A stretch of 34,357 bases of DNA, taken from IMG/VR virus record IMGVR_UViG_3300015370_001122, positions 1 to 34,357 of that record; one strand, 5' to 3'. Of the stretch, positions 8,514 to 34,357 are shown piece by piece (position 1 is the stretch's first letter; each line of letters begins with the position of its first letter). A model generated the notes under the pieces. It searched no databases and had not been told where the DNA came from. It worked only from the letters and a program-made list of their open reading frames with translations. A program made the position numbers and the translations under genes. The DNA is from a virus. Lineage: Duplodnaviria; Caudoviricetes.

Positions 8514-9154
8514 TGCAAGCCGCCCCCGATCTCCGCAGGAAGCTCTATGCGAAGCTCCACATCGCCAAGAAGCAGCTCGGCCTTGACGACGATGCCTGGC
8601 GCGATCTTGTCGAGCGCGCGACCGGCGAGCGCTCGCTTAAAGCGCTGACGGACGATCGGCTCACCCGCCTTGTGGAGGAGTGCCGCCGCCTCGGCTTCAA
8701 GCCGGCTAAGCAATCGAAGCCGCTCGCTGGCGGCCGGGAAATCCGCAAGGCCCGCGCGCTCTGGCTTTCGCTCTGGCATCTTGGGGTCATCCCGGACCCA
8801 TCGGAAGAAGCGCTCGCCGGGTTCGCGCGCCGCGTAACGGGCGGAAAGGAACTCGGCCTCGCTGCGCTTCAGTGGGTGCGCGGGGAAGATGCCTTCGCGC
8901 TCATCGAGGCTCTGAAGGAACGCGCCGCGCGGGATGCCGGTGTCAATTGGTCTCCCTATCGCCAGGGCAATCGCGTCGTTAGCCATAACCCGCGTGCGCG
9001 GGTCATTGAGGCGCAACGCCGCATCCTCAAACAAGCAGGTGATTCGTGCGCTTGGATTGACCTACACAAGCTCTCCGCCGTCGCGGCCGATGCCATGATC
9101 GCGGAACTTGGGGAGAGAGTACGAACCATCCGGGGGGCTGGGGCCGATGTCTGA
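8513..9154 (+). CDS. gemA: GemA (Mu gp16, DUF1018) regulatory protein
   Basis: AKLHIAKKQLGLDDDAWRDL...TG.RS...L; KARALWLSL...G...SEEALAGF; LIEALK. Confidence 0.88.
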   Translation: MQAAPDLRRKLYAKLHIAKKQLGLDDDAWRDLVERATGERSLKALTDDRLTRLVEECRRLGFKPAKQSKPLAGGREIRKARALWLSLWHLGVIPDPSEEALAGFARRVTGGKELGLAALQWVRGEDAFALIEALKERAARDAGVNWSPYRQGNRVVSHNPRARVIEAQRRILKQAGDSCAWIDLHKLSAVAADAMIAELGERVRTIRGAGADV

Positions 9155-9569
9155 GACCGAAGAAACGCAGGGCTGGCCTGCATCGCTTGTCCAGGTGAAG
9201 GGAAGCATCGGGCTTGCGGCGACGCTTCGTCTCGTCGAAGCTTTCGGCGGCACCGCCTGCTACATCCCTGCAACCCCCGACCCGTCTAACAGGCTGACGC
9301 AGGTTATCGGCATCGAAGCGACCGAGAAGCTCATCCGCGATCTCGGCGCCGGTTCCTTCGACGTGCCGAACCTCGCATCGGTCAGGCACAAGCGCCGCCT
9401 CATCATGCGCGCCAAGGGCACGGCGCGGGAAGTCGCCCGCAAGTTCTCGGTGACGGAGCGCTGGGTGCGCATGGTCCGCGCCAATCAGCGCGGCGGCATT
9501 GACGAACGGCAGATTGATATGTTCGGCTCGCCGCGCAACACGGATCACACCGGAAGCGCTTCCGACTAG
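9147..9569 (+). CDS. mor: Mor/C-family late transcription activator
   Basis: IGLAATLRLVEAFGGTACYIP dimerisation motif plus C-terminal HTH (AREVARKFSVTERWVR); between gemA and lysis genes. Confidence 0.8.
   Translation: MSETEETQGWPASLVQVKGSIGLAATLRLVEAFGGTACYIPATPDPSNRLTQVIGIEATEKLIRDLGAGSFDVPNLASVRHKRRLIMRAKGTAREVARKFSVTERWVRMVRANQRGGIDERQIDMFGSPRNTDHTGSASD
9549..9569 (+). promoter_or_regulatory. Late-promoter activator dyad, copy 1 (lysis operon)
   Basis: ACCGGAAGCGCTTCCGACTAG; 19/21 identical to 16559-16579. Confidence 0.7.
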
Positions 9570-29605: not shown

Positions 29606-30186
29606 ACGCGGCCGACTACAAGGAACTCCTTCTCTCCCTGCTTCCGACGGGCGCCGCCTGGCCGCGCGAGGAAGGAAGCATGCTGCGGGCGCTTCTCGAA
29701 GCGCCGTCGCAGGAGTTTGCGCGCGTGGACGCGCTTCTCGCCCTGCTGGAAGACGAGCTGGACCCGAACACGACCGACATAGCTCTTCCCGATTGGGAAG
29801 AGACCTACGGCCTTCCCGACGCTTGCGCCGGCGATGACCAATCGTTCGAGGCGAGACGAGAGCGCGTCATCCAGAAGGTCACGACGCGCGGCGGACAATC
29901 CATCCCGTTCTTTGTCGGTCTCGCGGCTGCGCTCGGTTATGACGTGACGATTACGGAATTCCTTCCGTTTAGCTGTGAGAGCGACTGCGAGGATACGCTC
30001 TACACAGAGGATTGGGCATATGCCTTCCGCGTGAACGCCCCCGAAGTCACCATCAGAGAAGCAACGGTCGATATGTCCTGCGAAGACCCGCTCCGGTCAT
30101 GGGGCAATGAAGTTCTCGAATGCGCGCTCCGTCGTCGGACGCATTCTCATTCCATCATTCAGTTTGGCTACGGAGAAGAGGCATGA
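29602..30186 (+). CDS. Mu gp48-like (DUF2313/YmfQ) baseplate protein
   Basis: LLP.GAAW; LPDWE..YGLPD; GGQS..FF..LA..LGY; WGN..LEC. Confidence 0.92.
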   Translation: MNAADYKELLLSLLPTGAAWPREEGSMLRALLEAPSQEFARVDALLALLEDELDPNTTDIALPDWEETYGLPDACAGDDQSFEARRERVIQKVTTRGGQSIPFFVGLAAALGYDVTITEFLPFSCESDCEDTLYTEDWAYAFRVNAPEVTIREATVDMSCEDPLRSWGNEVLECALRRRTHSHSIIQFGYGEEA

Positions 30187-31217
30187 GGCGGATAGACACG
30201 GCGACGAAAGCCGTCGACCTTTTCGGGCCGGGCAAGCACGGCTTCAAGGCCGGCAACGTCCTCGCAGGCGAAGCACCGACAAAGCTCGCGGCGGACTGGT
30301 TCAATCACGTCCAGGAGGAAATCGCCCGCCTCATCGAGGAGTTCTTCGGTGTCGAACTGGACGGGGCATCTGTCAATCAGCTCGCGACGCTCTTTGCAGC
30401 CAAGCTTGCGTTGTATGCCACGCTCGAATCTCCGGCCTTCTCCGGCGATCCCACCGCGCCGACGCAGGTGCCGGGGAACAACACAACGCGGATCGCCACC
30501 ACCGAATTCGTCGCTACGGCAATCGCCAATCTCATCGCCTCGTCGCCCGCCGCACTCGACACCTTGAACGAGCTGGCCGCCGCCCTTGGGAACGACCCGA
30601 ACTTCGCAACGACGGTGACGAATGCTCTCGCCGCAAAAGCTCCGCTCGATGGTCCTTCATTCACTGGGGTGGCAACCGTAATTACGCCACCCGTGGGAAA
30701 TAACAGTACACGCATAGCGACGACAGCTTTTGTCGCAGCGGAGCTGGCGTTGATCTCAGCGGCAACGACGGCCGCCGCAGGACTTATCGAGCTGGCCGAC
30801 CAAGGCGAAGCCGAAGCAGGGACGGCGGCCGACAAGGCGATCACGCCGGCGGCGCTTCGGCAGGCGTTTCGCGCCACGGGCACTGCGCCAGTCTATGCGT
30901 GCCGGATGTGGGTGAATGCCAACGGAACAGGGGTGCTCAACATCCGGGCGAGCGGAAATGTATCCTCAATCGATGATAACGGTACCGGCGACTACATAAT
31001 AAATTTCGCCACAGCACTGCCGGATGCAGATTATTGCGTAAGTGGCTTAACGACTGGCGGATCACTTTCGAACCTTTCGAACCATCTCGTCATAGCCGGA
31101 ACGCCTGCTGGTGGTGCAGCCCTCAAAACCGCCACGCAACTCAGGGTTCAGACTGGCGGTACGGCCGTGGCGTCTTTGATCGACAACGCCGAAATCAACG
31201 TCGCAATCTTCCGCTGA
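30183..31217 (+). CDS. Tail fibre protein
   Basis: MRRID...T...ADWFN.VQEEI N-terminus; P2 gpH-type SP.ALDTLNELAAALGNDPNFATT; two GNN.TRIATT.FV repeats; WVN.NGTG...IRASGNVSSI.DNGTGDY C-terminal domain. Confidence 0.9.
   Translation: MRRIDTATKAVDLFGPGKHGFKAGNVLAGEAPTKLAADWFNHVQEEIARLIEEFFGVELDGASVNQLATLFAAKLALYATLESPAFSGDPTAPTQVPGNNTTRIATTEFVATAIANLIASSPAALDTLNELAAALGNDPNFATTVTNALAAKAPLDGPSFTGVATVITPPVGNNSTRIATTAFVAAELALISAATTAAAGLIELADQGEAEAGTAADKAITPAALRQAFRATGTAPVYACRMWVNANGTGVLNIRASGNVSSIDDNGTGDYIINFATALPDADYCVSGLTTGGSLSNLSNHLVIAGTPAGGAALKTATQLRVQTGGTAVASLIDNAEINVAIFR
30450..30734 (+). repeat. Two diverged fibre repeats
   Basis: PTAPTQVPGNNTTRIATTEFV (about 30450-30512) and ATVITPPVGNNSTRIATTAFV (about 30672-30734). 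Confidence 0.75.
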
Positions 31218-31226
31218 GGTAGCACC

Positions 31227-31493
31227 ATGCAAGTTCTCATCTACAGAGACGACGAAGGCCGCATCTGCGTTGTCACGCCCGCGCCGGAATACGCGGATCA
31301 GATTATCGCAGTTGGCGAGAAGGACATCCCGCTCGGCAAGCCGTTCAAACTCATGGACGCATCGCAACTCCCGGTCGATTCGCCGCGCGAGGAATGGGTG
31401 TTCGATGACGCGACGTTCACGGACGGGATCGGCACGAACGTCGTTGACCATGATCCGGCGCCGGGGCAATTCGAGATCATCCTTGAGGAGTAG
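31227..31493 (+). CDS. Probable tail fibre assembly/chaperone protein
   Basis: GAGG RBS; IY....G...V..PA...KDIP.G.PF...D...LP....R..W; directly after the fibre. Confidence 0.65.
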   Translation: MQVLIYRDDEGRICVVTPAPEYADQIIAVGEKDIPLGKPFKLMDASQLPVDSPREEWVFDDATFTDGIGTNVVDHDPAPGQFEIILEE

Positions 31494-31496
31494 CCG

Positions 31497-31889
31497 ATGA
31501 CGATCTCCTCCGCCGTGACGTCTCGCCCAGGAATGTCATCGTTCATCTGCTACGGCCGGGCGGCAATGATCAGTCGAGAAGAGATCATAACGATGCGGGC
31601 CGCTCTCGCGGATGTTCTCGGTGTCGCTCAAGACGAGCTGTTTGCACCTTCGCGGCGCAAGGCACCTACCGCCTTCGCTCGGCATGTCGGCATGTACCTC
31701 ATGCACGAAGCTCTCGGGTTCAGTTACTCGGCCGTTGGCCGGTGCTTCGGACGCGACAGAACAACGTGCAGAGCAAGCGCCGCGATTGTCGAAAACCTGC
31801 GCGATGACGTTTCTTTCGATATCGAGATCGAGAGACTTGAGAATGCTCTGAAGGCGCGCATTCCAGAACTGGAAGGACACGATGACTGA
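31497..31889 (+). CDS. Stand-alone DnaA domain IV (Bac_DnaA_C) HTH protein, GafY-like
   Basis: GAGGAG RBS; ELFAPSRRKAPTAFARHVGMYLMHEALGFSYSAVGRCFGRDRTT...VENLRDD..FD; alternative start 31566. Confidence 0.8.
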   Translation: MTISSAVTSRPGMSSFICYGRAAMISREEIITMRAALADVLGVAQDELFAPSRRKAPTAFARHVGMYLMHEALGFSYSAVGRCFGRDRTTCRASAAIVENLRDDVSFDIEIERLENALKARIPELEGHDD

Positions 31890-32277
31890 CACTCTACCGG
31901 ACGGAAAATCCGTTGCGATCGATGCACCGATCGAGAGGGAAAAAATGAACCTCGTTCATGCGCGCAATTTTGACAACCAGTGGACTTCGCCGGTGCCGAT
32001 GGCGAACAGGCATCAGGCTGTCACATTCGCGGCCGAGGCGCCGGAAGCAATCGCCATTGCTGCCCTGAAGCCCGAAGGAGCGACGCGGCTCGATGTTCAG
32101 TGTCTCTCCGACATGTTCTTTCGCTGGGATGGCGACGTTGTGAAGGTGATGGCGGGCGATGGTTTCACTCTGCCAGCCAAATATATCTGTCAGTTCATGA
32201 ACGAGTCCCTTGACACGCTCGTCTTCGGACCACCTTCCGGCGCGGGCGCGCTGATCGTCCAACTCTATTTTTATTGA
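31882..32277 (+). CDS. Hypothetical beta-rich protein (131 aa)
   Basis: AAGGA RBS; overlaps the previous stop; PEGATRLDVQ...FRWDG; ends in YFY. Confidence 0.65.
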   Translation: MTDTLPDGKSVAIDAPIEREKMNLVHARNFDNQWTSPVPMANRHQAVTFAAEAPEAIAIAALKPEGATRLDVQCLSDMFFRWDGDVVKVMAGDGFTLPAKYICQFMNESLDTLVFGPPSGAGALIVQLYFY

Positions 32278-32338
32278 GCGTCCCCTTGCCGCACTATCCA
32301 CCCTGCAAGCCGGGACTACGGCAGATGTGTACGAACTA

Positions 32339-32461
32339 CCCTTCCGCGCGTATTGCGGGGGGATGGGCGCGCCAACGCCCAGAGCCGCGAGCGCGAACTC
32401 GCATGACCGAACCCGGCCGGTCCTTCGGCCATCCCCGCACCCGCGACACGGGCAGCGGGAG
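32339..32461 (+). promoter_or_regulatory. Multi-hairpin leader upstream of com
   Basis: Five consecutive stem-loops; two have CGC(C/G)AA loops; the last pairs the GGGA before the com ATG. Confidence 0.5.
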
Positions 32462-32463
32462 TC

Positions 32464-32679
32464 ATGCACAGGTACGACGTGGAGTCCATAAAATGCGGCG
32501 GGTGCGCCGCCCTGTTGTTTCGCGCCGCGCACGGCGCTATATCCGGCATTGTCGAGATCAAGTGCCGCCGTTGCGGCACGATCAATTCTTTGAGGCCCGC
32601 GAGGCCCGCACAAGAGCGCCCGGAGCGTCCCAACGAAATGGACGCCTCATGGCCCGCAAAACCTCCAAGTCCAGTCTGA
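32464..32679 (+). CDS. com: Com-family zinc-finger translational regulator
   Basis: IKCGGCAALL...EIKCRRCGTIN...ERPER; overlaps the methylase start; start may be GTG 32479. Confidence 0.88.
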   Translation: MHRYDVESIKCGGCAALLFRAAHGAISGIVEIKCRRCGTINSLRPARPAQERPERPNEMDASWPAKPPSPV

Positions 32680-33461
32680 CGCCTGTAGACCCGCTTCCCG
32701 GCCTCGCGCCGTGGATCGGCGGGAAGACGCTTCTCGCCCGCGAACTCGGCGAGCGAATCGATGCTATCCCACACACTTGCTATGCTGAGCCTTTTGTCGG
32801 AATGGGCGCGGCGTTTTTCGGGCGGAACAAGCGGCCGAAGGTTGAGGTCATCAACGATCTCAACGACGACGTGGTGACCGCCTTCCGCGCCATCCGCGAT
32901 GACGCGCGCGGCGTGCTGAGGGAATTGCGGTTCCGGCCTTTTTCCCGGAGCGAATTCACGCGGCAAGTGGCCATCGATCCTCGTACACTTAACGACGCCC
33001 AAAGGGCAGCACGGTTCATCTACATTCAGCGCACCCGCTTCGGCGGCAACATGCGCGGCTCCACCTTCGCCACGACCGCGACTTCGCGAAAAGCCATCGA
33101 CACTTTCGCTCTGCGTCGTCGGCTCATGGCCGCCAGCCGCCGCCTGTCTTTCGTCAACATCGAACAGTTGCCCTACGCGGAATTCATCCGCAGATACGAC
33201 CGGCCGGGGACGCTGTTCTATCTGGACCCTCCCTATTGGGGGTGCGAGACCTACTACGGCGTCGACATTTTCTCACGCGACGACTTCGCAGAGCTGGCGC
33301 ACATCTGCAAACACCTCAAGGGCCGCTTCGTTATGTCCATCAACGATGTGCCCGAAATCCGGAAGCTCTTCCGGTTCGCCAAAATCGAACGGGTGGCACA
33401 CCAATACTCGTGCTCGCAAAAGGGCCGCTTGCCCGTGCACGAGCTGATCATCTCCGGGTGA
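32649..33461 (+). CDS. D12-class N6-adenine DNA methyltransferase (Dam-like)
   Basis: PWIGGK, YAEPFVGMG, EVINDLN, FYLDPPY, SIND, ELII motifs. Confidence 0.93.
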   Translation: MARKTSKSSLTPVDPLPGLAPWIGGKTLLARELGERIDAIPHTCYAEPFVGMGAAFFGRNKRPKVEVINDLNDDVVTAFRAIRDDARGVLRELRFRPFSRSEFTRQVAIDPRTLNDAQRAARFIYIQRTRFGGNMRGSTFATTATSRKAIDTFALRRRLMAASRRLSFVNIEQLPYAEFIRRYDRPGTLFYLDPPYWGCETYYGVDIFSRDDFAELAHICKHLKGRFVMSINDVPEIRKLFRFAKIERVAHQYSCSQKGRLPVHELIISG

Positions 33462-33474
33462 CCGGCTTCGCTCT

Positions 33475-33510
33475 TTGACATCGTGAATGGGTTAACGCAA
33501 CGGCGCTAGT
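33475..33510 (+). promoter_or_regulatory. Possible promoter for the last two genes
   Basis: Exact TTGACA at 33475-33480 in a 100-bp gap; no clear -10 at canonical spacing. Confidence 0.3.
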
Positions 33511-33560
33511 GCGCGCTGTCGTTTCTTGCCATCATGCCGTCCGGTTTTTTCAAGGGGGCA

Positions 33561-34115
33561 ATGATGCGCGTACTCGTTCTATTGGCGGCAATGACGATCC
33601 TCGCCGGGTGCAGCGAAGCCGAGCCCGGCCGCGATGCGATCATCCAGATGCCGGAAAAGCAGGTGGCTCTCCTACAAGCCGTGGTTGACGGACAGGCCGC
33701 CTACGAAACCTGCCCCAACGAGCTGAAGTGTACTGCCGTCAGAAAAGCCCGGGACAAGGCGGTTGCGGAAGCCATGGGAGACGGCGAGATAGACAGTTGG
33801 ATCGGCCTGCTCAAGAGCATGTCGACCACGGGCGGCGGGACCGCCTATATCTCGGTGGCGATTCCCGGCTACGACGTGACCTTGAGCACCTGGAACAACG
33901 GCCTATCCGACCTTGCGGGCAACACAATGATCCCGTTCGGTTCGCCGCTCTATGAGGTCGTTGCGGAGCTGGAGGAAGGCGATGTGGTGATCGTTTCCGG
34001 GCACATGTTGGCGGAAAGCTCTCTGACCGAGGCAGGCTCGATGGAAGAGCCGGAGTTCACTACCCGTTTCAGCGCGATCCGGCGCGTCACGATGGCGGAT
34101 GCGGTGAAGGAATGA
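33561..34115 (+). CDS. Lipoprotein with possible OB-fold C-terminus
   Basis: AAGGGGG RBS; MMRVLVLLAAMTILAG-C lipobox; LEEGDVVIVSG OB-fold-like motif. Confidence 0.75.
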   Translation: MMRVLVLLAAMTILAGCSEAEPGRDAIIQMPEKQVALLQAVVDGQAAYETCPNELKCTAVRKARDKAVAEAMGDGEIDSWIGLLKSMSTTGGGTAYISVAIPGYDVTLSTWNNGLSDLAGNTMIPFGSPLYEVVAELEEGDVVIVSGHMLAESSLTEAGSMEEPEFTTRFSAIRRVTMADAVKE

Positions 34116-34357
34116 GCCTGGGCGAGATGGACGACGAAACGCTCCTGCACATGCTCTCTTTCGCGGTGGGGAGGCGCAAGCGCGATCTCGTGGAGCTATC
34201 GAAGAAGCATCCGATGGACGACAAGGCCGGAGAGAGGGTCGCAAAGGCGATCCTGGACCACATCCGGCTTTGCGGCTGCGATATCGTCAAGGTCAAGCCG
34301 CCACGGCAGAACTTGCCGCCTTCCGTGAAGCCAAAGGCCGATAGTTCCGGCGATTAG
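34112..34357 (+). CDS. Hypothetical protein (81 aa)
   Basis: AAGGA RBS; ATGA overlap with the lipoprotein gene. Confidence 0.6.
   Translation: MSLGEMDDETLLHMLSFAVGRRKRDLVELSKKHPMDDKAGERVAKAILDHIRLCGCDIVKVKPPRQNLPPSVKPKADSSGD

Follow-up and report, generated by a model that had tools for sequence, protein, structure and literature searches.

The window analysed here, the whole 34,357-nucleotide stretch of IMG/VR record IMGVR_UViG_3300015370_001122 (Duplodnaviria; Caudoviricetes), is a provirus record with a Mu-like layout (a transposase, phrog_310, and a Mor/C-type activator) that carries, behind its tail-fibre genes, a gene of the GafY/HdaB family. According to PMC11150451, Caulobacter GafY works together with IHF and through its binding to RpoD to turn on gafYZ, the main gene transfer agent (GTA) cluster and about 18 accessory promoters, and GafZ is required to pass a terminator. 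Judged by sequence comparison, the phage gene is real, intact and phage-adapted, stands without gafZ in a conserved but optional cassette, and has a host lineage equipped with the matching circuit. The cassette consists of the following features:

31485..31490, plus strand: ribosome-binding site GAGGAG, backing the start at 31497 (from the sequence; the N-terminus of homologue P0012 is similar)
31497..31889, plus strand: gafY-like gene, 130 aa, a stand-alone DnaA domain IV of the GafY/HdaB family (PF08299, PRK06030 below cut-off, trees, fold)
31722..31802, plus strand: helix-turn-helix, residues 76-102, with the RDRTT motif (column analysis, conservation in relatives)
31882..32277, plus strand: ORF131, an open reading frame (ORF) of 131 aa, predicted to fold as a small jelly-roll or double-stranded beta-helix and perhaps serving as an adaptor in the virion or for a spike (structure model)

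The 130-aa protein matches the Pfam family Bac_DnaA_C (PF08299; E 6.1e-12, 45.8 bits against a cut-off of 31.5), has no AAA+ domain, and gives an AlphaFold model (pLDDT 85.9) that matches DnaA domain IV (3pvp, 1j1v; target TM 0.80). A sequence-only reading of this stretch had described a stand-alone DnaA-domain-IV protein after the fibre genes, coupled to a 131-aa ORF, and Pfam, the fold and the overlapping frames (the start of ORF131 overlaps the stop of the gafY-like gene) agree with it. Relatives were labelled GafY only if a DUF6456 gene came next, so that our comparison set consists of DUF6456-adjacent regions, with the Caulobacter protein itself outside the alignment; among metagenome loci (parent contig L024 excluded) DUF6456 was next in 69 of 79, the other 10 ending about 400 bp or less from a contig edge. 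The window protein scores 99 bits on the GafY profile (98 sequences) against 37 on the DnaA profile, and the five cassette proteins together score 87-104 bits on the former, 37-51 on the latter and 58-66 on that of a phage group linked to DNA polymerase I, the GafY score being somewhat favoured because part of the GafY seed set was found with cassette proteins as queries. The best NCBIfam match is PRK06030 (GafY family) at 53.8 bits, under its cut-off of 148, which is also missed by true Parvibaculum GafY and passed by one DUF6456-adjacent protein at 320 bits.

The recognition motif reads RDR[TS]T in GafY regions and RDH[TS] in DnaA and generic phage copies: all 98 GafY regions next to DUF6456 have Arg at position 88, where each of the 8 DnaA sequences in the alignment has His. 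DnaA domain IV and generic phage Bac_DnaA_C proteins share the Pfam family and fold of the window protein, but have His at this position and form a separate clade. With 130 aa, no AAA+ domain and Arg88 instead of the His of RDH[TS]T, the DnaA initiator is excluded as an identity, and competition at canonical DnaA boxes (the sequence-only reading had spoken of DnaA-like boxes) is unlikely because DnaA has His where the window protein has Arg88.

In a 47-row tree the five cassette proteins form one clade (97/90) within the GafY clade (99/99). A 57-row tree with more phage rows kept the RDR clade (96/87), its interior collapsed, including the monophyly of the cassette clade, and the bootstrap had not settled. 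The rows omitted were L283 (short), L260 and, from the 47-row tree, the long-branch L237, L238, L249, L258, L279, L281 and L282, of which L237 and L238 were put back in the 57-row tree; GenBank MW462191.1 (L236, match H1), labelled phage, looks like a host gafYZ-sufE locus, is probably bacterial sequence and was counted as chromosomal-type GafY. An approximately unbiased (AU) test on 37 rows rejected a clade with generic phage DnaA_C proteins (p = 0.028), and together with Arg88 this excludes a generic phage DnaA_C (RDH type) identity. The same test kept placements with Parvibaculum GafY (p 0.32), with all GafY (0.51), basal (0.55), with the polymerase I group (0.57) and in an all-phage clade (0.66). 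Motif, profiles and trees thus make membership in the GafY/HdaB family, as originally proposed, well supported. The accompanying claim, that the phage captured a host GTA regulator, is supported as to family; as to ancestry, the AU test rejects neither host origin nor an all-phage clade, and descent from a host gafY is one possible placement among several. As that reading had noted, no gafZ accompanies the gene, there being no match to DUF6456 (PF20057) across the record, and since ORF131 lies downstream in its place we file the gene as a GafY family homologue and not as a gafYZ system.

Host and circuit match. The parent contig L024 runs on into tRNA-Ser and tesB, the product of which is 97% identical to that of a Parvibaculum metagenome-assembled genome, and this flank points to a Parvibaculum host. 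Among five near-host genomes, gafY adjoins DUF6456 in four and DUF6456 is present in all five; of the 73 genomes in the family, a GafY-like gene with a high score occurs in 69 and a GTA megatron in 57, and the GTA gene order was seen in all three fetched regions inspected in full. The host lineage accordingly has both gafYZ and a GTA cluster, as the sequence-only reading had suggested checking. Of the refuting outcomes that this reading had named, the two open to sequence comparison (grouping with generic phage DnaA_C proteins; a host lineage lacking a GTA or gafZ) did not arise.

The pairing of a gafY-like gene with ORF131 was seen directly in the window and in the Mu-like phage G001, whose two genes occupy the corresponding slot and are 41% and 40% identical to those of the window, and is inferred for four more lineages from the size match of the longest contigs (43,647; 73,050; 37,319; 34,664 bp). 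One further ORF131 homologue (90,513 bp contig) has no listed gafY-like partner, giving a pairing in 6 of 7 lineages. The cassette is rare and patchy: of 1.84 billion representatives searched, only two clusters scored above a wide gap, it was present in 1 of 20 viral loci retrieved via the baseplate gene (many of them truncated) and in none of four fetched prophage ends (from 6 places in 5 of 73 family genomes), and it is missing from the three closest sister prophages (L004, G051, G042), where another small jelly-roll-type gene fills the slot.

Both cassette genes are, as had been noted by eye, less GC-rich than the phage core: GC is 0.578 (gafY-like) and 0.561 (ORF131) against 0.647 +/- 0.021 in 23 core genes, and GC at third codon positions (GC3) 0.63 and 0.65 against 0.79 +/- 0.03, with the caveats that a low GC3 (0.68) is shared by the fibre gene and that the pair in G001 is close to its neighbours (GC3 0.73/0.78 vs 0.77/0.81). 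Low GC3, rarity and absence from the closest sisters are what one would expect of passenger cargo, a piece of DNA once captured and now without function, and yet we consider this very improbable, as the frame and ribosome-binding site are intact, the helix-turn-helix is more conserved than its flanks, and the gene is kept with ORF131 in six lineages down to about 40% identity. The helix-turn-helix is 26/27 identical in P0012 and in P0003, the remaining blocks being 54-76% identical; that an altered helix-turn-helix (see below) is better kept than the rest points to selection on a modified surface and not to decay. Together with the roughly 40% identical pair in the same G001 slot, this argues that the cassette is maintained by selection.

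ORF131 itself has no Pfam, PHROG or NCBIfam match, its Atlas neighbours are viral hypotheticals, and a scan of GTDB for relatives, which needs short exact patterns, found nothing. Its model (pLDDT 77.5) has the form of a small jelly-roll or double-stranded beta-helix; Foldseek returned no match to it at E <= 0.001, the best VIA match, PM2 spike P1 (Z 7.9), is within background with none reaching Z 8, and the fold matches include cupins of XRE regulators. On the strength of the model, ORF131 is possibly a virion adaptor or a cupin-like partner of the gafY-like protein. In the sisters L004 and G051 the jelly-roll gene of the slot is followed by a spike-fibre-like gene with a sub-threshold match to GTA_spike_fiber (24 and 35 bits, cut-off 36); downstream of ORF131 lie com and dam in the window and dam in G001, with no spike-fibre gene directly after.

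Aligning host GTA promoter regions yielded a motif that we reduced to WTATCCCCR, a box that by its distribution is a candidate GafY site of Parvibaculaceae. It lies upstream of gafY at 31 of 33 family loci (L189-L192, L202-L231; 0 of 33 downstream controls), upstream of the GTA terminase in 10 of the 11 clusters that could be located among 12 fetched (L314-L325; shuffled 0.065), and upstream of spike-fibre-like genes at 8 of 20 fetched loci (L326-L345, from 32 places in all; shuffled 0.38), with no copy in 159 kb of GTA cluster bodies. Its place in GTA promoters is immediately upstream of a pair of -35/-10-like elements separated by a GCG..CGC spacer. The box is absent from the window, G001, G051, G042 and L004 (0.3-0.6 copies expected in each), and in four phages scanned with a position weight matrix of the host GTA promoter no site exceeded the maxima of shuffled sequence. 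Should the specificity of GafY be retained by the phage protein, the lack of a phage copy would place its targets on the host chromosome. The candidate box is also useful in itself, since PMC11150451 presents a GafY consensus as not derivable in Caulobacter.

Our leading, and tentative, reading of these comparisons is that the phage makes its GafY-like protein late and that the protein activates GafZ-independent GTA accessory promoters of the host. The 88-aa ORF preceding the gafY-like gene ends 3 bp before it, leaving no room for an intergenic promoter, and this, with the overlapping frames, would imply late co-transcription with the fibre genes. The protein would read host GafY-type boxes through R53 and R86-T90, both among the residues it retains (R53, R62, Y67, H70, R86-T90, E99, R102, D103, E115), and, by analogy with Caulobacter GafY, would recruit sigma70. 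Without GafZ, transcription of the main GTA cluster would stop at the terminator, and, unless the gafYZ of the host were switched on as well, what is made would be for the most part accessory products (spikes, lysis functions); a lone GafY made from a late transcript would raise accessory genes by default. Such an activator fits both the late position and the exchange in the slot with spike-like genes. A stronger version, in which the phage swapped its own spike genes for a borrowing kit, the protein turning on host GTA accessory loci late and ORF131 mounting the host GTA spike fibre on the phage capsid, strikes us as distinctly unlikely; were it true, a phage would be parasitising a domesticated virus for virion parts.

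Several observations weigh against an activator of host accessory promoters. Of 29 positions at which 80% or more of GafY sequences agree, six, each 87-100% conserved, are notably altered in the window protein (Q63H, A65G, H93A, A94S, C95A, D100N), and three of them (H93/A94/C95 to A/S/A) fall in the recognition helix, so that DNA specificity or activation may be altered. H93 is retained in P0004, P0025 and the G001 copy, and position 63 is Q in 98 of 98 chromosomal GafY regions and H in the window protein, a detail in which the motif given in the sequence-only reading differs. The box was derived post hoc and from related genomes, occurs outside the family at only 4 of 63 gafY regions, and is unlike the element with ACTATG published for Caulobacter. 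Its likeness to the DnaA box TTATCCACA means that DnaA could be its binder; with about 0.5 copies expected per phage-sized sequence, its absence from the phages is also weak evidence. ORF131 fits head-spike base or vertex jelly-roll proteins in fold class but shows no significant sequence similarity to the spike base or to the sister jelly-roll (hhalign probability 1.7%; 4.0 bits), and the match between phage and host circuit covers one of the six carriers, the window lineage. Complex prediction of residues 22-125 with regions 3-4 of Parvibaculum RpoD scored 0.01 and gave no answer, which is uninformative either way. Finally, as described below, most RDR-type phage genes belong to modules for replication or early functions, a setting that makes a part in GTA control less evident.

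The loss of several GafY-invariant residues from a protein that keeps the base-reading RDRTT stretch would also suit a dominant-negative decoy, which fills GafY boxes, or ties up RpoD or GafZ, but does not activate; GTA production and an untimely lysis would thereby be prevented. Since a cell in which GTAs are induced dies, resident prophages should be selected to control GTAs. There is a precedent in TgrL of phage phiCbK, an XRE-type protein that acts as a repressor of gafYZ and leaves a rogA mutant without GTA DNA (PMC10688885). Both are phage homologues of host regulators, TgrL acting and the window protein predicted to act on the GTA circuit; TgrL, however, is an early repressor of gafYZ, of unrelated fold and from a lytic phage, whereas the gafY-like gene is an activator homologue in the late slot of a temperate phage, behind tail-fibre genes with no intergenic space. 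Just one 9/12 sigma70-like site lies upstream of it, a count that a scan of the region (2 found vs 0.8 expected) leaves uninformative, and a decoy leaves the coupling to ORF131 unexplained; we think this reading rather doubtful. Taken jointly, the two GTA-directed readings, accessory activator and decoy, are about evenly balanced against all the rest. Given TgrL, phage-GTA regulatory cross-talk is not the undescribed category that the sequence-only reading took it for (PMC10688885). TgrL is the only phage-encoded handle on GTAs that we found in print, and we found no report of a phage-encoded GafY/HdaB in the open-access literature, as judged from listings. With a phage activator homologue that lacks an anti-terminator, one could test directly if GTAs are hijacked or silenced by phages.

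The cassette is not the only place where phages carry genes of this type. A codon-restricted scan of viral contigs found 15 RDR-type genes: 10 before DNA polymerase I, 3 early in Mu-like phages, 1 unplaced, and the G001 copy; 13 of the 15 thus belong to the replication or early modules mentioned above. Scans for relatives that need short exact patterns found nothing in viral contigs with a single protein or alignment A2, and G001 alone with alignment A4. The stand-alone RDRTT genes directly before DNA polymerase I (L289-L294, L296-L299, L237, L238) belong to Pam3/RHph_I65-like lytic phages with a nucleotide-modification cluster, and L286, L288 and L295, which lie upstream of the transposase in early regions of other Mu-like phages, group apart as an RDRTT clade of their own (100/100); G001 has, besides the cassette copy, a generic RDHTS gene in its early region. 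Like the window gene, the other RDRTT genes are phage-borne, stand-alone, without gafZ and inside the RDR clade; unlike it, they lie before DNA polymerase I or near the repressor and transposase, and their GafY-profile scores are lower (48-80 bits). A phage-borne RDRTT gene is therefore not unique to the cassette, and the occurrence of several phage lineages within the family bears on whether GafY itself came from a phage.

From this distribution, one could picture an old RDRTT phage lineage re-specified to control phage genes (com-dam or the cassette itself, for example), perhaps with a cupin-like ORF131 as partner and with no link to GTAs. The strong conservation of the altered helix itself is in keeping with this, as are the cupins of XRE regulators among the fold matches of ORF131 and the all-phage RDR clade, which the AU test kept (p 0.66) and which fits no worse. 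By profile score, cassette proteins are nevertheless nearer to GafY of chromosomal type than they are to the remaining groups from phages, com/dam and late genes occur without the cassette, and the sole non-coding element common to carriers, before dam, is also found in L308, a non-carrier. On balance we rate a re-specified phage regulator as rather unlikely.

A further possibility is action in the manner of HdaB, with the protein titrating HdaA, blocking RIDA (DnaA's regulatory inactivation) and raising chromosome initiation, and so providing more template for replicative transposition and packaging. HdaB proteins of three Alphaproteobacteria inhibit RIDA, and HdaB binds HdaA, according to PMC7049699; those phenotypes are, however, ascribed to GTA induction in PMC9632790, and a late-operon position suits replication control poorly. 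We hold little expectation of this explanation.

With respect to known GTA activators, the window protein resembles Caulobacter crescentus GafY/HdaB (CCNA_01111) and the Hyphomicrobiales gafY-like proteins (PRK06030) in being a stand-alone DnaA domain IV with RDRTT in the same clade, and in having the GafY-specific residues H70, G74, E99, R102, D103 and E115. It differs in being phage-borne, with no gafZ downstream, a coupled jelly-roll ORF, six conserved positions changed and a PRK06030 score of 54 vs 148 bits. The N-terminus of Rhodobacter capsulatus GafA likewise places a DnaA-like helix-turn-helix in a GTA activator (PMC9638019), and by description the window protein is set apart from it by having neither a central nor a C-terminal DUF6456 part.

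CheckV puts the completeness of the record at 87%, and by comparison with sister prophages it appears short by only about 0.4 kb at its left end and some 70 bp at its right end. The features that surround the cassette, among them the phage's own Mor-type activator that the sequence-only reading had correctly recognised, are:

9147..9569, plus strand: Mor/C-type transcription activator, the phage's own (phrog_836, E 7e-25)
30183..31217, plus strand: tail fibre, left edge of the variable slot (PHROG tail fibre matches, E 4.6e-35)
31227..31493, plus strand: 88-aa ORF after the fibre gene, probably tail-fibre assembly (position alone)
32464..32679, plus strand: Com-like zinc ribbon, right of the cassette (PF10122, E 8.8e-9)
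32649..33461, plus strand: Dam-like adenine methyltransferase (PF02086, E 9e-28)

The dam gene is also found in relatives without the cassette (L006, L017, L308). Ahead of com and dam, a GC-rich multi-hairpin non-coding element at 32355-32453, with no Rfam match (nor was there any around the cassette), is 85% identical in G001 and partially present in L308; it is a possible translational control element.

Three related Mu-like prophages in different Parvibaculum genomes (L024:12886-12932; G051:C57, L306; G042:C147, L307) share 83-89% DNA identity, and such near-identical sisters without the cassette provide natural controls. In L024, G051 and G042 the prophage stops after a pair of GTGCCAAA repeats, at a distance of 82, 69 and 94 bp, respectively, from the 3' end of the tRNA-Ser(GCT) gene that follows tesB. 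Identity between the flanking host sequences is no more than 78-82%, and at other tesB loci of Parvibaculum this place is free of phage genes; a transposable phage with a preferred target is therefore suggested.

Among sequencing runs, none of RNA was listed as containing the sequence; an identical copy in one further DNA run says nothing of function, and in run X2 the right-end stretch 32040-34307 lies on a contig about 10 times deeper than the tail region (43 vs 3-5), a difference that may be technical. At the right end of the window, 33561-34115 encodes a predicted lipoprotein of no known family, common to L004, G001 and G042, and an 81-aa ORF occupies 34112-34357.
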